A DNA stretch of 64,000 nucleotides from Candidatus Hermodarchaeota archaeon (GCA_016839805.1 JAEOTO010000009.1:8369-72368), one strand, 5' to 3'. Positions 17,340-29,193 are shown, counted from the first letter of the stretch. Program-made: numbers and translations. The notes: generated by a model not told the origin, from the letters alone.

Positions 17340-17726
17340 TTGATTCAATCAGATGCGATTCGTCAGGCACTCCGGGAAAAGCTGGAAAATGGCATCACTC
17401 TTAAGACAACCGGAGGTACTGAATTCCTCGTCGAGTCAATTAACCCTACAGAAATTGTATTTCGTGTTGGAGAAAAGAAGGTGCGCGTCGCGGTTATGTT
17501 AGATGCGGTCGACGATCTTGTCAAAGAGTTCAAATTCATCCCTCCTGGTGGTTGGATGCGAATTGGAGCCGTAACTGGTGAACCCAAACCAGGAACTCTA
17601 GCAGCAGTGGTTCGCGCACATACTCAAGGCGCAAGCTCAGCAAGTCAGTTTGCTGCAGTATTAGAACATATCCAAGTAGCAGAAGTTAATCCCACCCGGC
17701 CTGCAAGAATACGCCTGACTGTTTAG
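17340..17726 (+). CDS. Hypothetical protein
   Basis: 128-aa ORF with a TTG start 10 nt after AAGGAGG. Confidence 0.5.
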   Translation: MIQSDAIRQALREKLENGITLKTTGGTEFLVESINPTEIVFRVGEKKVRVAVMLDAVDDLVKEFKFIPPGGWMRIGAVTGEPKPGTLAAVVRAHTQGASSASQFAAVLEHIQVAEVNPTRPARIRLTV

Positions 17727-17731
17727 ATGAA

Positions 17732-19723
17732 CTAGATCTTTTTCAAATGAACCCGAGTTGAATTAAACACGGAACCATTTCCAATGGGCTGAGGTGTATC
17801 CGGAGTTAGGATATTTTGTGGTTTGCCTTTCTTTCCAATAAATTGCCGTGGTGACCATAATATCCCCGGAGGCACCGTTTCAGTTATGTGGGTATGCACT
17901 TGAATTGCGCCTTGCTCATTGTAGAGTTGGATTTCATCACCATCTTTTATCTTCAAAGTTTTTGCATCAATGGGGTGAATGTGCACGATTGCAGGAATAT
18001 CGCCGTAGATTTCCTGAAATTGTGTGTGAGTATAATTTCGGAGTGCACTGTTCAATAGTTGAAATTGGCCTGACTCCTTCTGAAGAATAGCCTGTTTGGG
18101 AATTGGGGAGATTCCATGCCTTAATGCTATGGAGGATGCAAACTCAATTTTTCCTGAAGGTGTTGAATATTCATCCAAGGAAATGGAATTTAGTTTTAAC
18201 CGGTTTCCATTGAGAAGATCATTCAAGTTCGGGGTCGATAAAGCGTTATTCATTGCCACCTTTATTGCTTGCCAAGGTGGCTGGTAGAGCCATTCGTCTT
18301 TTAGGTCTAATCGCTGCGCTAATTGTTGCATGACCCAGATTTCACTTCGGCTTGCATCATCTGGTTGAATAACTCGATTTGATTTCTGGACATAATGATG
18401 GCTCCACGGGATAACTAAGTCCTCTTTTTCAAGATAGGTGAGTGCAGGTAACACAATATCCGCGTAACGTGTAGTTTCGGTCCAGTGTGTCTCATGGACA
18501 ACGACAAACACATTATCCCGTAATAGTCCTTTTCGGAAGGCGGCTTGATTGGGCAATGTCAGCGCGGGATTCATATTATAGATATAAAGAAACTTGAATT
18601 CTCCATTCGCTAGATGCCTTCCTAACTGAACTTGGCTAACAACTTTGCTGGACTTTGAAGTAAGACTTTCTCCAGTCAAATATTCATAATCTATTGGATA
18701 GGCTTGTCCATTACTATAGAAGAATCCTCGATGCAGACCAATTACTGCGGGGAGGAGACTAATAGCTCGTACGGCTTCAGCTCCGTTCGAACTTTTTTGC
18801 ATTCCCAGTCCAATTAAAATGATACTTGAACGTTCTGTGCCATAGAGCCTTGCAAATTGCTCGATTTTTGCCGGTTTAAGTCCAGTCAGTTCTTTTAAGC
18901 GGTCAGGAGTCCATTTTTTACTTTCTGCACGAAATTGCTCAAAACCGACTGTCCATTCTTCTAGAAATACTGAATCCGTTAATCCTTCTTCAATGAGATA
19001 GTTCGCAAGCGCATAAGCTATTGCCACATCAGTTCCAGGTTGCGCCTGAATGTGAATGTCGGCTTTCTTTGCCGTTTCACTCACCCGGGGATCAATGACT
19101 ATTATTTTGGCTTGGTTCTGATCTTGGGCTTTGAGGGCAAGCCTCCACAAATGGGGTGAACTCACAGCCGCATTGAAACCCCAGAATATGATGAGTTTTT
19201 GGTTGATGAGGTCTTCGGGCTGGATACCGTGGCTGGAACCATAATGCAAGGCAAGCGCCTCATGACCGGACTTACTACAAATGCTATTATCGGTCTTGGA
19301 TGCTCCCAAGTTATTCCAAATGCGATGAGGAAAGTATTCGGTTAAGAGACCCATATTTCCAGCATATTCAAGGTGTAAGATCGCTTCTGCCCCTGCAATG
19401 AGTAACGTATCCTTCAACTTATCTGAGACAAGTTGAAGAGCCTTATCCCACGTGCACTTTTTTCCGAACTTATCCGGCTGTTGTTTATCTCGAATGTATG
19501 GAAATCGAACACGCTGAGAAGAAAAGGTACGATCTAAGTCTTTTGCCCCTCGTGGACAAGTAAAACCTTGAGTGATCGGGTGAGATGAATCACCCTTGAG
19601 TCTAAGGCGTTGATTGCCATCTGTAAATTCGGCTATCAGGTGACAGCTATCATAGCAATCCCGAGGACACACGGTGTTAATCTGTTTTTTAGACATTAGA
19701 CCGCTTCCATAATTTAAATTCAC
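17732..19723 (-). CDS. Molybdopterin (bis-MGD) oxidoreductase, cytoplasmic; DMSO reductase/formate dehydrogenase superfamily
   Basis: 663 aa. N-terminal Fe-S cysteine group CPRDCYDSCHL...FTCPRG. No Tat signal and no in-frame TGA. The true start may be ATG 19696 (MSKKQ). Confidence 0.8.
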   Translation of the reverse strand: MNLNYGSGLMSKKQINTVCPRDCYDSCHLIAEFTDGNQRLRLKGDSSHPITQGFTCPRGAKDLDRTFSSQRVRFPYIRDKQQPDKFGKKCTWDKALQLVSDKLKDTLLIAGAEAILHLEYAGNMGLLTEYFPHRIWNNLGASKTDNSICSKSGHEALALHYGSSHGIQPEDLINQKLIIFWGFNAAVSSPHLWRLALKAQDQNQAKIIVIDPRVSETAKKADIHIQAQPGTDVAIAYALANYLIEEGLTDSVFLEEWTVGFEQFRAESKKWTPDRLKELTGLKPAKIEQFARLYGTERSSIILIGLGMQKSSNGAEAVRAISLLPAVIGLHRGFFYSNGQAYPIDYEYLTGESLTSKSSKVVSQVQLGRHLANGEFKFLYIYNMNPALTLPNQAAFRKGLLRDNVFVVVHETHWTETTRYADIVLPALTYLEKEDLVIPWSHHYVQKSNRVIQPDDASRSEIWVMQQLAQRLDLKDEWLYQPPWQAIKVAMNNALSTPNLNDLLNGNRLKLNSISLDEYSTPSGKIEFASSIALRHGISPIPKQAILQKESGQFQLLNSALRNYTHTQFQEIYGDIPAIVHIHPIDAKTLKIKDGDEIQLYNEQGAIQVHTHITETVPPGILWSPRQFIGKKGKPQNILTPDTPQPIGNGSVFNSTRVHLKKI

Positions 19724-20434: not shown

Positions 20435-20761
20435 ATGAAAACCTGTGATGCATGTGGATATGAAAACGATAGCGATGCCGATTTCTGTGCCCGCTGTGGG
20501 GCTCATCTCGCCGCTGTGAAAGCCAAACCCGCTGAAGTAGAGAAAGAAGACGAAGACTGCTATGGAAAAGAAGAAGACGAATGTTTTGGGCTTCCACACG
20601 GAGGAGCAATATGTGGAATGCTCTTCGGATTGATTATCATCGTTTGGGCTCTTGGTATTATCTTTGGGTGGAATATTTGGGATTACTTCTGGCCACTCAT
20701 CCTCATTGTCATTGGTGGACTTATTGTTGTTGGTGCAATCTACACTATGCGTCGTCGTTGA
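20435..20761 (+). CDS. Zinc-ribbon / ECFG-motif / 2-TM membrane protein (paralogue P1)
   Basis: 108 aa. CDACGYENDSDADFCARCGAHL, acidic linker, ECFGLPHGGAICG, two TM helices, C-terminal RRR. Paralogous to 23284..23631. Confidence 0.7.
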   Translation: MKTCDACGYENDSDADFCARCGAHLAAVKAKPAEVEKEDEDCYGKEEDECFGLPHGGAICGMLFGLIIIVWALGIIFGWNIWDYFWPLILIVIGGLIVVGAIYTMRRR

Positions 20762-20775
20762 TAAGATCAAGAAAA

Positions 20776-21519
20776 TTAACTCTCTGATAGTGGACATCCG
20801 AGGATTCCGCATTGGGTACATATTCGTCGATGAGCCCGTCGAGACATGACTATTCGAGTAAAAATCCAATAACAAATCAGTGATAATAGGTAAACCGCAA
20901 GAAGGATATTATTCGTGAGTTGAATAACGTTTGATAAGATTAGAAAGGATCCTACGACGAATAATACATTAATGATTACTCGGACTCCTCCCTGATGTAC
21001 TCTTAGGAGTCGATAGAATGGGTGCTGCAATAGACCAATACCTACAAAGACAAATCCTAGCCAGAAAAAGGCTTCAGGGAAAATGAATTGAACACCGAAG
21101 AAGAAAAAGAGCGCCGTTCCAATAAGTGCAATTACTGCCCCTGTGACCAGGCCTGTACACCCAGCACAGTAAACCTTTTTTCTGAATGAAAAAACGTGGC
21201 TAGCATATGGATTACAGGTTGGATGGTGACCGCGTTTCTGAATAGGATGAAGTTCGTCTGTAGTTTGTGCGGGTTGGTTTCTGTGTTCTCCTTGAGAGGT
21301 CTTTTTTCGTGACGGTCGTCGGCAATGTGAAGGTGATACACCAGCAATAATACCAAGGATGCATATAGTGGTGAAGGCGATTCCGATTAGTTGATTCTGC
21401 CATAGGACTACTATCATGGGAGGAGGGTTAAGGAGTAAGAATGGCAGTAGACCAAGTCCAACCAATGACAAGAAAAGGGAGATAAGAGCAAGTTCAGAAC
21501 CTCGGGTTGATTGCGTCAA
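20776..21519 (-). CDS. DUF2085-like polytopic membrane protein
   Basis: 247 aa. HHPTCNPYASHVFSFRKKVYCAGCTGLVTG resembles the DUF2085 CH..RSF...CARCTG core. Its TTG start overlaps the upstream rSAM stop by 4 nt (TTGA). Confidence 0.6.
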   Translation of the reverse strand: MTQSTRGSELALISLFLSLVGLGLLPFLLLNPPPMIVVLWQNQLIGIAFTTICILGIIAGVSPSHCRRPSRKKTSQGEHRNQPAQTTDELHPIQKRGHHPTCNPYASHVFSFRKKVYCAGCTGLVTGAVIALIGTALFFFFGVQFIFPEAFFWLGFVFVGIGLLQHPFYRLLRVHQGGVRVIINVLFVVGSFLILSNVIQLTNNILLAVYLLSLICYWIFTRIVMSRRAHRRICTQCGILGCPLSES

Positions 21520-22976
21520 AATCGAAAAAGCCCCTTCAAAGTAGCTAGAAATCCCTTCCGCATCATATGCCGGTAGTAAGTCCGTTTCACCTTATTCTTG
21601 GCAAGTACCCCAGATATCCGGCGTCGCCATCCATAATACGCCCGGTAAGTAGCATAAAGCTCAGTTTGCACCTCTTCACGTGTGAGGTGTTCCGTTGGCA
21701 TAATCGCATGAACCATATCGAATCTCTCCCATCGGGGATCCTCAATCCAGCCACTCGCTAAGGCTTCTTCATACTTCGGCGTACCGGGGTATGGTGTCAT
21801 CGTCATAAACACTGCAACATCAGGGTCAAGGTCATTAATCCATTTACGAAACGCTTCAATGGTTTCATGAGAATCTTGGCGGTGTCCGATAATCGCCGTT
21901 GTTTGGGCAAGAATCTCATTTTCCTTTAACAATTCAATGGCTTCCTTGCCCATCCCAACCTCAATGCCCTTCTGATATTTCTTAAGCATTTTCGGGTCAT
22001 GACTCTCTAATCCCGTCATTATCCACTGCATTCCAGTCTCTCGCAACTTTGGAAGTAAGGTTTTGCCAGCAATGATTTCATCTACCCGTGTCTGGAAAAA
22101 CCACATTAGATCCTCGGTAATCCCCCGCTCAAGTAACTCATCACACAAAGTTTCCATCCAGTTGTCCAATTGAATATAATCATCTGTAAGCCACAGAAAC
22201 CTACTGCCAAACTCCTGGTATATATATTCAAACTCGTCAGCAACGCGTTGTGGTGATTTTCTGCGGCACTTTCCCCAATACCGCCATTGAGTACAAAAGG
22301 AGCATGAATGGTTACATCCTCGTCCACCTTCTACCAAAGCATAGGGTAAATCCTTCCCTGCAGGGAACCGATAGTTCAACATATGCTCCCGCACAAAGTG
22401 ATAACCTGGAAAAGGAAGCGTGTTTAAGTCTTTAATTAAAGGACGGTTTGGCGTATATACAATCTTTCCATTATGGCGAAATGAAAGTCCCTTCACCCGT
22501 GTCAGCGAGCGCTTCGATTCCAAGGCTTGGATTAACTCCAAAAGCGTTTGTTCCCCTTCACCCCGGACAATAAAATCCAGTTGCGGAACCCCCGCCAAAA
22601 CCTCCTGAGCCAGCACCGAAAAATGCTGACTTCCCACAACCGTGAAAATTCGCTTATCAATCTCTTTAGCCAATACCACTGTCCGAAGCGTTATCTCAGC
22701 ATTACAAGACGAAACCGTGCTTGGAGCCACAAGATCCGGTTGAAACGCCATAATTTGCTTCTCGACATCATCCCACTCCGCTTCCTCTGCCTGACAATCC
22801 ATCACCTGAATTTCTATTTCAGGATCATGAGCTTCCAGATAGCTTGCCAAACACAACAACCCTAACGGTGGCGGAATATATTCACCCATCACAAACCAGG
22901 GCTGTTTCGGAGGCTCAACGAAGAGAATTTTCACGAATTCACATTCCAACCAAATCGTGAATGCGCTTTCCCCCAC
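21516..22976 (-). CDS. B12-binding-domain radical SAM protein (class B rSAM)
   Basis: 486 aa. N-terminal B12-binding-like Rossmann region (ILFVEPP..PDLVAPS..VVGSQH..DFIVRGEGE), then GGRGCNHSCSFCTQW (CxxxCxxC). Confidence 0.85.
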   Translation of the reverse strand: MGESAFTIWLECEFVKILFVEPPKQPWFVMGEYIPPPLGLLCLASYLEAHDPEIEIQVMDCQAEEAEWDDVEKQIMAFQPDLVAPSTVSSCNAEITLRTVVLAKEIDKRIFTVVGSQHFSVLAQEVLAGVPQLDFIVRGEGEQTLLELIQALESKRSLTRVKGLSFRHNGKIVYTPNRPLIKDLNTLPFPGYHFVREHMLNYRFPAGKDLPYALVEGGRGCNHSCSFCTQWRYWGKCRRKSPQRVADEFEYIYQEFGSRFLWLTDDYIQLDNWMETLCDELLERGITEDLMWFFQTRVDEIIAGKTLLPKLRETGMQWIMTGLESHDPKMLKKYQKGIEVGMGKEAIELLKENEILAQTTAIIGHRQDSHETIEAFRKWINDLDPDVAVFMTMTPYPGTPKYEEALASGWIEDPRWERFDMVHAIMPTEHLTREEVQTELYATYRAYYGWRRRISGVLAKNKVKRTYYRHMMRKGFLATLKGLFRF

Positions 22977-23283
22977 CTTGAGATTTAACCCTTTGGTCTC
23001 TTCAGTACAAAAACACTGGAGAAGAAGAGGGGAACGGAGCTATGGCAATTCAGGCACCTCCAAAAAGGACACAATTGGAGGGGAGAGGGAATGGTTTCTA
23101 GGGGAGTGGAAGTGCCTAAATATTTGCCACTCCGGTCCGGTTAGTATTCCGGTTCCCCAGGTATTGCCAGGTGGAATGGCTTATTAAAACTTCTCATTAA
23201 CAACTTTTAGTTATTGGAATTTTTTGGGTTTCCCCAAAATCTTAAGAAGAGAAAGGTTGCTACTGCTGGGTGAGGTGTTCCTC

Positions 23284-23631
23284 ATGGTTTATTGCCATAA
23301 ATGCGGTGCAGAAAACGCAGAGGATGCTGACTTCTGCAAGAAATGTGGTGCTCCGCTCGCTCCCAAAGAAGATATTGGTAAGAGAATGGGTGTTTGGGGG
23401 CGACGTTTCGGTGAACGTGCTGAAGAAGAGTGCTTTGGCGTCACTGGTGGAGGAGCCATCTTTGGCATCATTATTGGCATCATCATAATTGGACTTGGGT
23501 TTTCTTTGGTCTATGGCTTACCGTTGTGGCTTTTGATTGGTCCCATTGTGGGAATTATCATTGGAGTACTCATTATTGTCTGTGCGTTGAATTCGATTCG
23601 TAGAAAGCGTTCCTTGAGGAAACAAGAGTGA
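23284..23631 (+). CDS. Zinc-ribbon / ECFG-motif / 2-TM membrane protein (paralogue P2)
   Basis: Start at ATG 23284 (MVYCHKCGAENAEDADFCKKCGAPL). Then EEECFGVTGGGAIFG, two TM helices and a basic tail RRKRSLRK. Confidence 0.7.
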   Translation: MVYCHKCGAENAEDADFCKKCGAPLAPKEDIGKRMGVWGRRFGERAEEECFGVTGGGAIFGIIIGIIIIGLGFSLVYGLPLWLLIGPIVGIIIGVLIIVCALNSIRRKRSLRKQE

Positions 23632-23634
23632 AAA

Positions 23635-24117
23635 ATGGAGGTTGTTGTTGTGGGTAAAAAAATGCCTGAAGGACCGGATATCCTGGGCGGAGTCACTGCG
23701 GGTCTCATCATTATCTTGATAGCGATACTCTTCGTTTTGACACCTTTCTTACTCGGTCATTTGTTCAACTTTATCACAAATTTTGCCTGGCAAGAAGTGT
23801 ATCCTGGGTTTATTTGGTGGGCTCCACAGAATCCCCATCCTGTGGTCTACAATACACTGTTTCTCTTCTTCCTCGGAACCCTGGTAATTAATGTCATAGT
23901 TCTAATATTACGGGTTATCTTCAGGGACTCTTATCGACGGCAAATTGAATCCATTGGCGGAATTATCGTCAGTATCGGTATTTCCTGGGCAGCATACAAC
24001 CTAACCCTGAATAACAATTTCACAGCCTTTGCAGGTTGGACTATCGTCTTCATTGGAGTAAGCATCATTATCTCGAGTCTAGGCTATTTCGCTGTCCGAT
24101 CAAAAATAGCAGAGTAA
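23635..24117 (+). CDS. Membrane protein, hypothetical
   Basis: 160 aa with four hydrophobic helices. It starts 3 nt after the P2 stop. Confidence 0.55.
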   Translation: MEVVVVGKKMPEGPDILGGVTAGLIIILIAILFVLTPFLLGHLFNFITNFAWQEVYPGFIWWAPQNPHPVVYNTLFLFFLGTLVINVIVLILRVIFRDSYRRQIESIGGIIVSIGISWAAYNLTLNNNFTAFAGWTIVFIGVSIIISSLGYFAVRSKIAE

Positions 24118-24192: not shown

Positions 24193-26103
24193 CTACTCTC
24201 GCTTCATCGGTCTTTTCATGGGAGAGTCTGCTGGATTCTTTGCCTCGGGAGAAGTTTTCGCCAATTCTTCTTGAGCACTTCTCAGGGCTTCTTCTGAGAT
24301 TTCTTCCGCTGTTTGGTGTGCATAGTAGGTATCATAAACAGCTTTGTACCGCCCACCTAGAGCTAATAGTTCCTCATGTGTCCCTTCTTCGACTATCTTG
24401 CCAAGGTCAAATACTAATACACGAGATGCGTTGGCGATTGTAGTTAGTCGGTGAGCGATCACGACCGTAGTTCGGTCCGAGAACAGTTTTTCTTGAGCTG
24501 CTTGAACCAGGGATTCTGAATAAGCATCCAACCGACTCGTCGCTTCATCGAGAATGAGGATTTTGGGGTTTGCCAGCATTGTCCGTGCTATTGAAATCAT
24601 TTGAACTTGTCCAGCACTTAGATTGCTTCCTCCTTCGACTAACATGGTATCGTATCCTTGAGGCAGAACCTCGATGAAATCATTCGCTCCAATTAAAGTG
24701 CTGAGACTAAGGATTTCGTCATCAGTTGCATCTGGTTTTCCGTAACGGATGTTTTCGAGGACGGTATCATCAAAAAGGTACGGTTCTTGCGCAATCAAGG
24801 CAACCATCTCATGAAGGGACTCAAGTGATATATCCCGGATATCTTGGTTCCCAATTAGAATCCGACCACTTTGTGGATCGTAAAACCGGTTTATGAGGGC
24901 TGCTACTGTGGTCTTACCAGCTCCGGTTGCACCCACAATTGCCACTAACTCTCCAGGATTGACTTTGAAATTTACTTCCTTGAGAACTTCAGTTTTCTCG
25001 ATATATGCAAAAGAGACGTTTTCAAAGGTAATTCCATCACTTGTTGGTTGAAGGGGAACTGCAGTTTCATTATCGATGATTGAGGGTTCAGCTTCTAATA
25101 TGTCCATTAAACGATCCATCGAAGCCGTAGACGCTTGGAACTGCGTTGCCATCATGCTCAGAGAAAGTAAGGGCCAAAGGAATCGTTGAATTAGAATTGT
25201 TCCCAGAAACACTTCACCAATTGTAAGTAAAGGTGCGGTCCCTGCGGCCAGACTACCTGCTACAAATAGGACTGCGGCTACGGCAGCGATCCCGGTTGCT
25301 CGGACGAGGGGCTGCATTAGTGTCATCAACATCATGAATCGAAATCCATGGCGATACGATTCCTGGTTTAATTCGCTTAACGTTGCAGCTGTTTCATCTT
25401 CGCGATTAAACGCTTTAGCAACATGAATGCCACTTAAGTTTTCAGCAATCTGTCCGGAAACATAACCGGTAGCGCGTTGTGCGGCTAACATGGTTCGCTG
25501 ACCGACGGTTCCGAAAAGAATGACAATAAGGATTACCACGGGAATTACAACTAAAGCCGTTAATGCGACTAATGGAGAGGTTAACCACATTAGACTAAAG
25601 GTTGCCAGCAGTAAGAGCATTTGACTAGCAAAATCAATGACGATCTGAATCCCTGCCGCGAGATTATCTGTATCGGTGGTGACTCGGGATGTGATATCGC
25701 CGCTTTGTTCTGAGGTATGATAAGACAGGTCGGCACCAACAAGTTTCTTATAGACGTCCTGTTGGAGAGATCGTACAAAACCAGCTTGAGCCCCTGATAA
25801 AATCCAAGTATTCAGTGATTGCAGAGTCCAACTTACCAGGCGAAGAATAACGTATAAGATGCCGAGATAGAAAATACCAAGCAATGTACTTCCTGGAAGT
25901 AGTACTAAGTTGATTCCCGTTGACAATACCAGAGGGTCAACGGCGCGAAAAATCGTGGCGATTACTGCTAAAACCGCTGCAACAACGATTAATTTTCTAA
26001 ATCGACCCAGATACCTAAACATGCTCCCTAGAAGAACACGTAATGGGCGGCTCCGTTTATGTTTGTCGCGAATCAATCCAGTGGGTCCACGGCGAACTGC
26101 CAT
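24193..26103 (-). CDS. ABC exporter, fused permease/ATPase (type I exporter half-transporter)
   Basis: 636 aa. Six-TM domain, Walker A GATGAGKTT, signature LSAGQVQ, Walker B ILILDEATS. Its start overlaps the upstream stop (TAATG). Confidence 0.9.
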   Translation of the reverse strand: MAVRRGPTGLIRDKHKRSRPLRVLLGSMFRYLGRFRKLIVVAAVLAVIATIFRAVDPLVLSTGINLVLLPGSTLLGIFYLGILYVILRLVSWTLQSLNTWILSGAQAGFVRSLQQDVYKKLVGADLSYHTSEQSGDITSRVTTDTDNLAAGIQIVIDFASQMLLLLATFSLMWLTSPLVALTALVVIPVVILIVILFGTVGQRTMLAAQRATGYVSGQIAENLSGIHVAKAFNREDETAATLSELNQESYRHGFRFMMLMTLMQPLVRATGIAAVAAVLFVAGSLAAGTAPLLTIGEVFLGTILIQRFLWPLLSLSMMATQFQASTASMDRLMDILEAEPSIIDNETAVPLQPTSDGITFENVSFAYIEKTEVLKEVNFKVNPGELVAIVGATGAGKTTVAALINRFYDPQSGRILIGNQDIRDISLESLHEMVALIAQEPYLFDDTVLENIRYGKPDATDDEILSLSTLIGANDFIEVLPQGYDTMLVEGGSNLSAGQVQMISIARTMLANPKILILDEATSRLDAYSESLVQAAQEKLFSDRTTVVIAHRLTTIANASRVLVFDLGKIVEEGTHEELLALGGRYKAVYDTYYAHQTAEEISEEALRSAQEELAKTSPEAKNPADSPMKRPMKRE

Positions 26104-27884
26104 TAATTGACTCCCTCCTTCTTAGATAGATTCTTGACATAGGGTAGGGCTCCTGGTAGTCTTTCAAAGATTCGTTGATAATGTTCGGAGGTTTGAAGCA
26201 GCTCATCATGAGTACCCTTTGCCACGAGGTGTCCCTTATCAACAATTACGATGAGGTCTGATTCAAGCAGTGTTCTAAGCCGTTGAGTGACAGTAATGCT
26301 TGTTCGATTTTTCATGACCTCGTCTAAGGCTTTTCGAAGTGAATATTCGGTTTGAGCATCAATGGCACTGACTGAGTCATCTAATAACAGAATCTTGGGG
26401 TCCTGCACAAGGGTTCGGGCAATCGCTAGACGTTGACGCTGCCCACCACTCAGGGTCATTCCCCGTTCTCCGATAATGGTGTCGTATCCTTGGGGTAATC
26501 TCTCAATGAACTCATGGGCCTGTGCCTTTTTCGCTGCATCCACAATTTCTTCTTCACACGCATCAACACATCCAAAGCCTATGTTATCATTGATGCTCAT
26601 TCGAAAGAGAAAAATATCCTGCTCAACTAGCCCAACAACTGCCCTGACATCACGAGTACAGACATTGTGAAGATCCACACCACCAATCAAAACACGGCCT
26701 TCTGTCGGATCATATAACCGTAAAAGAAGTTTCAAAATAGTGCTTTTTCCGCCGCCAGGACCACCGATAAGAGCGACACGCGAACCACTGGGAATGGTGA
26801 GATTAATGTTTTTCAAAGCGTAGGAATTTTCTTGTCCATTCTCAGTGAGATATTGGAAACTAACATTATCAAAAACGATGTCCCCAGTCCAATCCACTGT
26901 AGTGATGGGCTTCTCTGGTTCTTGAAGTGGATCTTGCCAATTGAGCACGTTGATGATTCGTTGGGCATTCACGTGTCCTCCACGAATCACTAAAAGAAAG
27001 CGTGGGAGCATAAAGCTGAAGGTATCAACTGCGCCGAGAAGGCCCAGGATTTGAACGAGGACACCAACGGTAAATACACCAAGTAGAACCTGATACGCAC
27101 CATAGAAAAACGCAGCGGTGGTAATTCCAGTTAAGATGAGTGCTGGGATGTAAAAGGCTGCAAGGCGGCCTTCTCGAGTGGTAAGCTGTTCATACTCTGC
27201 TGCTACATCGTTGAATTTTTCTTGTTCACGTTCTTCTGTTCCAAAGGCTCGGACTACCTCAATGCCTCGAAAAACTTCTTGGCTTACTGCCGTGATCCTT
27301 TCGTTTTGTTCAGATCGTGCACGACGAACCGGCTCAACCTTCACGGCATAACGATAGGCAAAGTAGAGGTATAGCGGAGCCCCAATTAACATGATAACTC
27401 CAAGCCACACATCAATTAGGGATAACAAGAACGCTGAAATGATTAGGGTTCCAATTGCTGTGATGATGTTTCTCAGAGCAGGATTAAGGGAGAACCGGAC
27501 CCATCGGACATCCTGCATAGCGACGGCTAGCAATAGTTTGCTATCAATCTGATCGTGGAATGTCATACTATTTTCCTGGACGAGTTCAAAGAATTCTTGC
27601 CTAGCATCACGTTCCCAGCGCAATGTGATTACGGCAAACGTATAACCCACTAGAAGAATCGTGATGAAGAGTGCAGCTGCTATTAGCAGAATAAGAAAAA
27701 CCTGGTTAATGAATGCCTGGGTGAAGCCCTGTGTCTCCAGTATATCAATGGCAACACCTAACACTAAGGCTGGTAATGTCGTCAGGTACGCACCAAGCAG
27801 GGCTAATCCTGTTGCAATAATGGTTACACCAGGATATCGCCGTAATGCGGCTAATTGATAACGTGATGCACTCTTGTACTTCAC
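26103..27884 (-). CDS. ABC exporter, fused permease/ATPase (partner half-transporter)
   Basis: 593 aa. Walker A GGPGGGKST, signature LSGGQRQRLAIAR, Walker B ILLLDDSVS. Confidence 0.9.
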   Translation of the reverse strand: MKYKSASRYQLAALRRYPGVTIIATGLALLGAYLTTLPALVLGVAIDILETQGFTQAFINQVFLILLIAAALFITILLVGYTFAVITLRWERDARQEFFELVQENSMTFHDQIDSKLLLAVAMQDVRWVRFSLNPALRNIITAIGTLIISAFLLSLIDVWLGVIMLIGAPLYLYFAYRYAVKVEPVRRARSEQNERITAVSQEVFRGIEVVRAFGTEEREQEKFNDVAAEYEQLTTREGRLAAFYIPALILTGITTAAFFYGAYQVLLGVFTVGVLVQILGLLGAVDTFSFMLPRFLLVIRGGHVNAQRIINVLNWQDPLQEPEKPITTVDWTGDIVFDNVSFQYLTENGQENSYALKNINLTIPSGSRVALIGGPGGGKSTILKLLLRLYDPTEGRVLIGGVDLHNVCTRDVRAVVGLVEQDIFLFRMSINDNIGFGCVDACEEEIVDAAKKAQAHEFIERLPQGYDTIIGERGMTLSGGQRQRLAIARTLVQDPKILLLDDSVSAIDAQTEYSLRKALDEVMKNRTSITVTQRLRTLLESDLIVIVDKGHLVAKGTHDELLQTSEHYQRIFERLPGALPYVKNLSKKEGVN

Positions 27885-28050: not shown

Positions 28051-29193
28051 ATGGGCACTCAAAATCAGCATAACCGTTATTTGCGTGCATTCATTATTGC
28101 CTGTTTTGGCTGTTTTCTGATTGGGTACAGCCTGGTGTATCCAATCTACTACGCGACGAGTCCCTCAAGCATTTATGGATATGGAGGTAGGCGTTATGCT
28201 GGTGTGAAACCATACTTTGGAACTGTTTCTGAAAACGATACGGATTTCTATGCTGATATTGATGCTAATTTAGATGATCCCTTTTATTATTATGAGCTGA
28301 CTCTTGAGATTCGAAACTTCTATACCAATAATACTCCCGTAACTCTTATCCTTTCAACATATTTTACGAACCAGACAGTATCAAATTTCTATAATCTCAC
28401 AGCAGAACCCATCAACTATGAATTCCAAATTTGGGATCCTACTCAATTTTATCTCACAATTCAATACAATGGAAGCGCCTCAGCTTTCTCATTTTGGGCA
28501 GTAGTTCATGGTGAACTCCCGCTACATCCTATACCACCACCTCCAATTTTTCCTCTTGTAATGACCGGATCGGGTTTTGTAGTGGGAATAATCCTACTTG
28601 TCATTGGTTTATACGATTACAGGGTCCAAAAACGGAGCCGTCATTCATATAATCTGGATCGGGCTTTGATTTTTTGTTGTTTGGGTCTGCTCCTCGTCAC
28701 TTTGAGTTATCCGTCACTAGTCCGACCCCACTATACTCTCTATTATCATCCCCAGGAATACATCGATTTTGGTTTATTCTCTGGAACTGTTAACCAAACA
28801 GTCCCCTATGTCAACATGACCCTATGGGGTATTAATGAAAGTGTCGTGGAGATTCGAACATTCTTCGTGAATAATGCGTCTGTTACAATTCATGCATACC
28901 CCATCGACAGATCGACGAATCGCACATGGAATTATGTAAATTCCCGATACCCGGGATATCAGGATTTTGTGTTTGACACAACAGGTGATACGGTAATCGA
29001 GGTAGAACGTGAAACTGAGGATACAGGATTTAGCTGTTGGGTGTTGGCTAATTTTCGAGAGGTAGAGGTCCGTCAAAATTATGCTGGAAATTACGCCCCA
29101 TATGCTACAATATTTCTTATATCTGGTGTACTCTTACTTGGATTAGGGCTCTATTCCGCTTCTAAAGGCTTCAGAGAGATTCCCAAGCTATAA
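28051..29193 (+). CDS. Membrane glycoprotein with an internally duplicated ectodomain, hypothetical
   Basis: 380 aa. Layout is TM, ~150-aa domain, TM pair, ~150-aa domain, TM. The repeat is visible as LEIRNFYTNNTPVTLIL versus VEIRTFFVNNASVTIHA. Ten N-x-S/T sequons counted. Confidence 0.6.
   Translation: MGTQNQHNRYLRAFIIACFGCFLIGYSLVYPIYYATSPSSIYGYGGRRYAGVKPYFGTVSENDTDFYADIDANLDDPFYYYELTLEIRNFYTNNTPVTLILSTYFTNQTVSNFYNLTAEPINYEFQIWDPTQFYLTIQYNGSASAFSFWAVVHGELPLHPIPPPPIFPLVMTGSGFVVGIILLVIGLYDYRVQKRSRHSYNLDRALIFCCLGLLLVTLSYPSLVRPHYTLYYHPQEYIDFGLFSGTVNQTVPYVNMTLWGINESVVEIRTFFVNNASVTIHAYPIDRSTNRTWNYVNSRYPGYQDFVFDTTGDTVIEVERETEDTGFSCWVLANFREVEVRQNYAGNYAPYATIFLISGVLLLGLGLYSASKGFREIPKL

Follow-up and report, generated by a model that had tools for sequence, protein, structure and literature searches.

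Do the genes at positions 20435-24117 of a 64,000-nucleotide stretch of Candidatus Hermodarchaeota DNA (Asgard archaea; GCA_016839805.1 JAEOTO010000009.1:8369-72368; hereafter the window) form a functional unit, and if so, what does this unit do? The locus encodes a predicted class-B (B12-binding) radical S-adenosylmethionine (SAM) enzyme (rSAM), a polytopic membrane protein (Mem), two small proteins with a zinc ribbon and an ECFG motif (P1 and P2) and a further membrane protein (P3), and it lies next to an ATP-binding cassette (ABC) exporter pair. A first inspection of the DNA (the sequence-only reading) had suggested that these genes belong together and that their combination has no characterised counterpart. 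Our data demonstrate that rSAM, Mem and a small protein of the P1 type, a zinc ribbon followed by two transmembrane (TM) helices (ZnR-2TM), together with P3 as an optional component, constitute a module that is kept across archaeal phyla, in hundreds of anaerobic archaea, and inherited as a trio in at least six lineages. No known rSAM family fits it, and in full-text literature searches we found no description of this module.

For unbiased sampling, one genome per GTDB species was scanned with a degenerate DNA pattern for the Mem motif GHHPxC-x15-CxxCxGL, with no selection on neighbouring genes, which yielded at least 120 loci. These loci were then searched with local hidden Markov models (HMMs) for the zinc ribbon, rSAM and P3, and were counted only where the contig had room. 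Among the matches listed, a zinc-ribbon/2-TM open reading frame (ORF) adjoined Mem in 90 of the 101 loci with downstream room (83 convergent with Mem, seven on the same strand), and an orthologous rSAM gene lay directly upstream of Mem, on the same strand, in 89 of the 103 loci with upstream room. When Mem alignments of individual lineages were used for two more scans, 72 loci were obtained, some of them shared with the first set; here the zinc-ribbon gene adjoined Mem in 64/70 and rSAM lay directly upstream in 63/68. Over these two partly overlapping sets, the same gene order and orientation recurred in about 190 loci. The carriers are Bathyarchaeia, Thermoplasmata/Methanomassiliicoccales, Methanobacterium, Methanoperedens/ANME-2, Methanomethylicales, Nitrososphaeria, Thermoproteota and Asgard archaea; for 80 of the motif-scan loci (at least 120), the record titles named mostly Bathyarchaeia.

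The linkage was also recovered from the opposite direction. A profile of the ECFG and 2-TM part retrieved 396 proteins, and when seven hits on long contigs were sampled, Mem adjoined the small gene in six and rSAM was present as well in five. The proposal of a functional unit is borne out by the linkage of the ECFG family to rSAM and Mem across archaeal phyla in both search directions. A search for Mem homologues returned 109 proteins, including those of distant Bathyarchaeia, whose contigs carry a B12-rSAM gene beside Mem, then one or two zinc-ribbon/ECFG/2-TM genes. In a metagenome-assembled genome (MAG) of the Methanobacteriota, the rSAM is 46% identical and the order is still rSAM > Mem < ZnR. 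The full trio is also present in a cultured organism, Methanobacterium ferruginis NBRC 105197 (L207; see the table). Clustering of all neighbouring ORFs of the loci revealed no recurrent neighbour other than P3, and fusions between rSAM and Mem or between Mem and ZnR were looked for and not found.

The closest public loci come from Hermodarchaeota and other Asgard MAGs, with 91% identity of the rSAM protein. In the Hermodarchaeota lineage, synteny extends over the whole stretch, comprising the two ABC genes, P3, P2, rSAM, Mem, P1 and a DUF2299 gene. Because the whole region is syntenic at this short evolutionary range, this synteny alone says little about function, and it would equally be seen if unrelated genes had simply been inherited side by side. 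Outside Hermodarchaeota, however, all flanking genes change, while the order and orientation of the trio and its abutting or overlapping junctions stay across phyla. The cross-phylum data therefore rule out that the gene order reflects nothing but unrelated genes passed on together, and we give hardly any credence to the view that the locus has no functional unity. Over 65 complete loci, the distance matrices of Mem, rSAM and ZnR were correlated (r = 0.82-0.84, Mantel p = 0.001), which fits inheritance as a unit, with a contribution from shared species phylogeny. The mean pairwise divergence across loci was 44-69%, which argues against a recently spread mobile element. Four module contigs (L032, L071, L099 and L168) have been assigned to Anaerolineales, Candidatus Acidoferrum, Patescibacteria and Nanoarchaeia, probably by mis-binning rather than transfer.

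The general design of the module is rSAM > Mem > < ZnR-2TM, with an optional P3 gene divergent from rSAM, and its canonical small protein is P1. The bracketing of the operon by two paralogues, which the sequence-only reading had emphasised, did not generalise: the universal element is one convergent P1-type copy, and P2 is found mainly in Asgard loci. Among the loci examined, a copy at the P2 position, between rSAM and P3, was confined to the Hermod/Asgard lineage, with P2 synteny in L001-L007 and L014 and a second copy at this position in the Asgard loci L030, L047, L074, L089 and L109. Two Bathyarchaeia loci (L049 and L055) hold two small-protein copies at other positions. P3, which belongs to no family in Pfam or NCBIfam, is a facultative fourth component in several phyla. 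A local HMM gave 28 hits, among them Bathyarchaeia, Methanomethylicales, Methanobacteriaceae, Thermoproteota and Asgard archaea, and in the loci whose layout was examined (such as L035 and L144) P3 lies upstream of rSAM on the opposite strand; the exception is L120, where it stands beside the ZnR gene. The ABC exporter adjoins the module only in loci of the Hermodarchaeota lineage; it does not belong to the module and is probably an unrelated neighbour. Therefore, the main support for the suggestion that the small proteins are modified and then exported is gone.

Within the window, all the ORFs named earlier were found at the coordinates given for them, and the TTGA and TAATG junctions were read directly in the sequence. 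The stop codon of rSAM overlaps the TTG start codon of Mem as TTGA, and rSAM is translationally coupled to Mem; P1 and Mem are convergent, with stop codons 14 nt apart; P2 and P3 are separated by a 3-nt gap; and the ABC pair is joined through TAATG. The likely start of rSAM is the GTG at 22934 and not the codon at 22976, because its homologues are 472-478 aa long. The divergent intergenic region presumably contains the promoters of both rSAM and P2. A look for transcription data found no RNA runs for the window or for M. ferruginis.

Features of the locus in the window, and module loci in other genomes whose coordinates are cited in the text (+ and -, strand)
Feature	Position	Strand	Evidence or remark
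P1, zinc-ribbon/ECFG/2-TM protein, 108 aa	20435-20761	+	ORF; Zn_Ribbon_1
Mem, six-TM Cys/His-rich protein, 247 aa	20776-21519	-	ORF; no Pfam/NCBIfam family
Predicted class-B rSAM, 472 aa from GTG at 22934	21516-22934 (longest ORF to 22976)	-	ORF; Pfam
Divergent intergenic region between rSAM and P2, 349 nt	22935-23283		read from sequence
P2, divergent second zinc-ribbon/ECFG/2-TM copy, 115 aa	23284-23631	+	ORF; motif ECFGVTGGG
P3, 4-TM protein, 160 aa	23635-24117	+	ORF; 3-nt gap after P2
ABC exporter pair	24193-26103 and 26103-27884	-	ORFs; PF00664 and PF00005 in both
M. ferruginis NBRC 105197 rSAM	L207:1473-2924		full trio
M. ferruginis NBRC 105197 Mem	L207:2929-3711		full trio
M. ferruginis NBRC 105197 ZnR	L207:3902-4237	-	full trio
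PEMT::Mem loci with the usual rSAM-Mem-ZnR set	L066:4185-5438, L107:451-1704, L137:4453-5661, L070:3541-4712		
PEMT::Mem proteins			P0355, P0375, P0405, P0410, P0446, P0449, P0453, P0464, P0490

The identification of rSAM as a B12-binding radical-SAM enzyme held up, with Pfam matches to B12-binding (PF02310, 67.8 bits) and Radical_SAM (PF04055, 58.9 bits) and to no further domain. The CxxxCxxC motif reads GCNHSCSFC. An AlphaFold2 (AF2) model of rSAM (pLDDT 89.9) gave AprD4, TsrM, OxsB, CysS, MgmA and TokK as the top Foldseek neighbours, all at less than 20% identity, with TM-scores of about 0.7 against AprD4, TsrM, OxsB, CysS and TokK; no solved structure more than 20% identical to rSAM was found. 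Profiles and model clearly predict a class-B architecture, in which an N-terminal B12-binding Rossmann domain precedes a radical-SAM core. Classification by HMM placed the enzyme in no known family with confidence. The best profile was BchE (TIGR02026), which aligned over nearly the full length with 254.1 bits, below its cut-off of 481.35, and was followed by HpnR (TIGR04367; 155 bits, cut-off 650) and HpnJ (TIGR03471; 143 bits, cut-off 578), again below their cut-offs. Enzymes acting on ribosomally synthesized and post-translationally modified peptides (RiPPs), namely ApyD and rSAM_ocin_1, scored 110-116 bits. BchE, HpnR and HpnJ are thus the best curated profiles; they have the domain order of rSAM in common and act on hydrophobic substrates. 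The lineages that host the module are not known to make bacteriochlorophyll or hopanoids. The last ~25 residues of rSAM form a long, basic amphipathic helix.

Some Hermod/Asgard genomes that carry the module (L008-L012, for example L012:9998-11458) encode a second B12-rSAM that is ~60% identical and has no Mem or ZnR, and therefore the partners are specific to the rSAM subfamily of the module. In L008 and L012 the gene of an unrelated multi-helix membrane protein lies divergently upstream of this second rSAM, and downstream of it, in L008 and L010, there is a gene whose small product reads as GYD-like. On the Thermoplasmata contig L146 (5025-6454), the module rSAM is broken up into three gene calls, one with the B12-binding domain, one with Radical_SAM and one with the C-terminal part, while Mem and ZnR are intact, which suggests frameshifts or a pseudogene.

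Mem has six TM helices. Three of its loops hold all the Lys and Arg residues (11, 3 and 4), and the loops on the opposite side hold none. In alignments, H98, H99, C102, C118-x2-C121 and C234-x2-C237 are invariant, G97, P100 and C242 are nearly invariant, and H230 is invariant or nearly so, which defines the motifs HHPxC, a CxxC directly before TM3 and a C-terminal CxxCx4C. The conserved His and Cys residues are presumed to be cytoplasmic because all of them sit in the K/R-rich loops. The conserved ligands, five invariant and one nearly invariant Cys plus two to four His, would be enough for two Zn sites or one Fe-S site. Although the AF2 model was of good quality (pLDDT 84.5, pTM 0.82), Foldseek returned no PDB structure as a neighbour at E <= 0.001, a profile search found no sequence relative in the PDB, and Mem belongs to no family in Pfam or NCBIfam. 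The family itself is large, with 706 representatives of 50% identity clusters at E <= 1e-3 in a profile search, 437 of them at E <= 1e-10.

Mem had been described as DUF2085-like, and what is left of this is a resemblance of motif. DUF2085 proteins are polytopic membrane proteins with a CxxC placed directly ahead of a TM helix, as is Mem, whereas Mem additionally carries HHPxC and the C-terminal CxxCx4C. The window protein had no match to DUF2085 (PF09858) at E <= 10, and only two of 71 family members matched it weakly (best E = 0.02). A DHHC-, VKOR- or DsbB-like fold was likewise rejected: in the Foldseek search against the PDB, VKOR appeared only at E 5.9 and DHHC and DsbB were absent, and the profile search against the PDB was empty.

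In a subset of Bathyarchaeia, Mem is fused to a methyltransferase domain. Among the best 150 Mem representatives, all nine full-length, N-terminally extended proteins tested (PEMT::Mem) passed the Pfam PEMT cut-off, the N-terminal domain of about 190 aa scoring 35-50 bits against a cut-off of 25; a tenth case is a fragment, and the fusion frequency is about 6% of Mem representatives. Four loci have the same fusion within the usual rSAM-Mem-ZnR operon, and where such a locus is complete, which is the case in three, the zinc-ribbon gene runs in the direction of Mem and is not convergent with it. Against NCBIfam, the fused domain matched protein-S-isoprenylcysteine O-methyltransferase, lipid A phosphate methyltransferase and methanethiol S-methyltransferase below their equivalog cut-offs, and these scores therefore assign it to the superfamily only. 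Its relatives methylate lipids or prenyl-cysteine in the membrane. With respect to the intramembrane SAM methyltransferases PEMT, ICMT, LmtA and MddA, some Mem proteins thus contain a domain of the same superfamily, whereas Mem of the window has none, and no stand-alone PEMT-like gene occurs in the window or in the loci.

The profile scores of rSAM and the cysteines of its partners could point to a cofactor or redox module. In such a module, rSAM would act on a membrane tetrapyrrole, corrinoid or quinone-like cofactor, and Mem and a rubredoxin-like ribbon would bind Fe and feed electrons. BchE as the best-scoring family, with its nearly full-length alignment, is consistent with this, as are the Cys/His cluster on the cytoplasmic face of Mem and the ribbon of the small-protein family, in which both knuckles are CxxCG. 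In one Thermoplasmatales MAG (L040:254-2395), a gene for a TspO/MBR tetrapyrrole-binding protein lies directly upstream of rSAM, with a masked run of N between them. This adjacency was, however, seen only once, the BchE score is about half of the cut-off, and no recurrent gene of tetrapyrrole, corrinoid or quinone biosynthesis lies near the module. The carriers belong to lineages that are not known to be phototrophic and that differ widely in their cofactors, which also counts against this explanation, and the PEMT fusion would be left unexplained by it. We therefore consider a cofactor or redox function quite improbable.

The reading that we favour, while granting it somewhat less than an even chance, is that the module is a membrane-docked rSAM complex that modifies isoprenoid ether lipids. 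Mem would dock the soluble rSAM at the cytoplasmic face of the membrane via a Zn or Fe-S site and would present to it a membrane-embedded isoprenoid ether lipid of the archaeol or glycerol dialkyl glycerol tetraether (GDGT) type. On this lipid, rSAM would carry out radical C-H chemistry, for which C-methylation appears most likely and reactions of the desaturation or cyclisation type possible. The zinc-ribbon/2-TM protein or proteins and P3 may be accessory subunits for assembly, regulation or electron delivery, and in the Hermodarchaeon the duplicated zinc-ribbon subunit P2 would pair with P3. We looked towards lipids because every partner of rSAM is an integral membrane protein, because a membrane methyltransferase of the PEMT/ICMT type is fused to part of the Mem family, and because the best profiles of rSAM (254, 155 and 143 bits; RiPP enzymes reach 110-116) are those of enzymes with hydrophobic substrates. 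The basic amphipathic C-terminus of rSAM moreover resembles those of the membrane-bound archaeal lipid B12-rSAMs Cgm and Ted, and the reported host range of Ted, with homologues in Bathyarchaeota, Methanobacteriota, Thermoplasmatota and Asgard archaea (bioRxiv 10.1101/2025.10.20.683597), resembles that of the module. The known archaeal lipid B12-rSAMs (GrsA/B, Gmm, Cgm/Pgm and Ted; Garcia et al. PNAS 2024 PMC11214058) are likewise archaeal class-B enzymes that are predicted to be peripheral to the membrane via a C-terminal amphipathic region.

Several observations weigh against lipid modification. The lipid product itself is hypothetical. The B12-like domain of AprD4, the top structural neighbour of rSAM, is not known to bind cobalamin, and cobalamin use by rSAM is therefore only putative. 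Tes, Grs, Gms, Gmm, Cgm/Pgm and Ted act alone in heterologous hosts, and none is reported with Mem or zinc-ribbon partners. All of them exceed 495 aa, and Cgm, Pgm and Ted (bioRxiv 10.1101/2025.10.20.683597) as well as Gmm (PMC11214058) bind the membrane as single proteins by way of the C-terminus, whereas the rSAM proteins of the module have 472-478 aa. Ted homologues were defined by E <= 1e-100 to DRO69_02625 and a length of >= 500 aa (bioRxiv 10.1101/2025.10.20.683597); the rSAM of the module falls below this length filter, and it differs in length and neighbourhood from Ted, Cgm and Gmm as described. The ted gene overlaps a gene for an AttH-like hydratase (hgs) (bioRxiv 10.1101/2025.10.20.683597), whereas the 3' neighbour of the module rSAM is Mem in 89 of 103 loci among the matches listed. 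The occurrence in Bathyarchaeia and Methanomassiliicoccales had led us to consider a methylase of the backbone in butanetriol dialkyl glycerol tetraethers (BDGTs), which are described as a lineage-specific marker of the genus Baizosediminiarchaeum (PMC12694404). The module is far broader than the range of reported BDGT producers, which leaves this as a minor sub-possibility, and none of the 42 Thermoplasmata-type hits in the pattern-limited scan came from M. luminyensis, although this is no proof of absence. Furthermore, about 10% of the loci contain the Mem and zinc-ribbon pair without an adjacent rSAM. A protein-centred function would account equally well for these pairs and for an invariant Cys in the small protein.

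This Cys belongs to the ECFG motif of the small proteins. P1 and P2 are paralogues, as proposed earlier (BLASTP, 40% identity over 87 aa, E = 5e-10), and both belong to Zn_Ribbon_1 (PF13240), with 25.7 bits for P1 and 36.2 bits for P2 at a cut-off of 25. In P1, the zinc ribbon (CxxC-x11-CxxC) stands at the N-terminus and is followed by an acidic linker, ECFG, the 2-TM hairpin and, at the C-terminus, RRR. P2 likewise has a zinc ribbon at its N-terminus, then an acidic linker and ECFG. Both had been credited with two TM helices. Hydropathy supported both helices of P1 and the second helix of P2, while the first helix of P2 was recognised only through alignment with P1. P1 is predicted to be N-in/C-in because of its two hydrophobic helices and its basic tail. 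The family consensus is MVYCxKCGTKNxDDAxxCxxCGAxL, followed by ExECFGxPxGG, a TM helix, W..WP, a second TM helix and RR. The four zinc-ribbon Cys are present in 128/135 family ORFs. The Cys of ECFG, which is juxtamembrane, a few residues before TM1, is kept in at least 95% of family sequences. Thermoplasmata variants have CxxxC[AVH]G in place of the ECFG-type motif, and many Bathyarchaeia variants, like P1, have an extra CFG or CYG a few residues upstream.

Thermoplasmata also carry a larger zinc-ribbon protein. In the Thermoplasmata-type loci L146 (3213-3914), L051, L052, L061, L064, L067, L082, L117 and L128, a further gene lies directly upstream of the ZnR-2TM gene and in the same orientation. 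Its product, of ~235 aa, contains a zinc ribbon and, as it appears, several TM helices, and in this lineage it may correspond to the P2 and P3 pair.

The conservation of the ECFG Cys raises the possibility that the small protein is not a subunit but the substrate. An rSAM held by Mem would then alter the juxtamembrane Cys or a neighbouring residue, by C- or S-methylation or by thioether or lipid attachment, and in the lineages with fusions the PEMT/ICMT-type domain would add a further methyl group. The near-invariant Cys lies on the same, cytoplasmic, side as rSAM and the metal site of Mem, and some genomes have two small-protein copies for one enzyme (P1 and P2 in the window, also L017/L018, L049 and L055), multi-copy substrates being typical of such systems. 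The persistence of Mem and zinc-ribbon pairs where no rSAM is adjacent agrees with this too. Proteins or peptides are known substrates of some B12-rSAMs; the structural neighbours of rSAM include MgmA, and the ApyD and rSAM_ocin_1 profiles do reach 110-116 bits. The fused domain is related to protein-S-isoprenylcysteine O-methyltransferase as well as to a thiol S-methyltransferase. By analogy only, Mem also recalls the eukaryotic DHHC S-acyltransferases, which act on juxtamembrane cysteines of TM proteins and are polytopic, with a cytosolic Cys/His-rich metal-binding loop before a TM helix; however, there is no similarity of fold, the motif of Mem is HHPxC and not DHHC, and no DHHC protein was among its Foldseek hits.

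The features expected of RiPP-type rSAM maturation were nevertheless lacking. Such systems combine a co-oriented precursor whose core varies with a recognition element or SPASM domain and with a protease or exporter that is conserved alongside the enzyme. Here, the small gene is convergent and hence separately transcribed in 83/90 cases among the matches listed, and the small protein is conserved from end to end, TM hairpin included, as a structural subunit would be, and shows no division into leader and core. Moreover, no protease was found, rSAM has no recognition element detectable with Pfam, the exporter is not conserved with the module, and the RiPP rSAM profiles score below those of the lipid and tetrapyrrole enzymes. 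Modification of the small protein is therefore unlikely in our estimation, though by no means negligible. Slightly less probable still is the more elaborate version of it, in which the module would be a new archaeal protein-modification machine, with an rSAM seated on a Mem of new fold that methylates or lipidates the ECFG Cys region and some lineages adding methylation of the ICMT/PEMT type. If this were true, the machine would be an archaeal, including Asgard, counterpart of eukaryotic juxtamembrane Cys lipidation and prenyl-cysteine methylation.

Archaeal membrane chemistry is largely the work of radical-SAM enzymes, and several lipid modifications, such as the butanetriol and pentanetriol backbones, have no enzyme in the literature that we searched. 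The groups to which the carriers of the module belong dominate anoxic sediments, and their lipids serve as biomarkers. If lipids are indeed modified, the module may explain an orphan biomarker, whereas modification of the small protein would represent a new kind of archaeal post-translational modification. In either case, rSAM is the first B12-rSAM found in the searched literature with obligate, dedicated membrane partners, of which the Mem and P3 families are unannotated and Mem is without a known fold. The cultured carrier M. ferruginis NBRC 105197 makes the module testable.

The exporter pair (24193-27884, minus strand) is a heterodimeric, MsbA-like type-I ABC exporter that scored below all equivalog cut-offs. 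Between the DUF2299 gene and a gene at 17340-17726, a 663-aa ORF (17732-19723, minus strand) that looks like a molybdopterin oxidoreductase forms a variable insertion; it is present in L001 and L005, absent from the syntenic L002, L004, L006 and L007, and reduced to a short remnant match in L003. Beyond the exporter, a 380-aa membrane-anchored protein with no Pfam family (28051-29193, plus strand) appears to be an internal duplication, both of its halves matching one region of L002.

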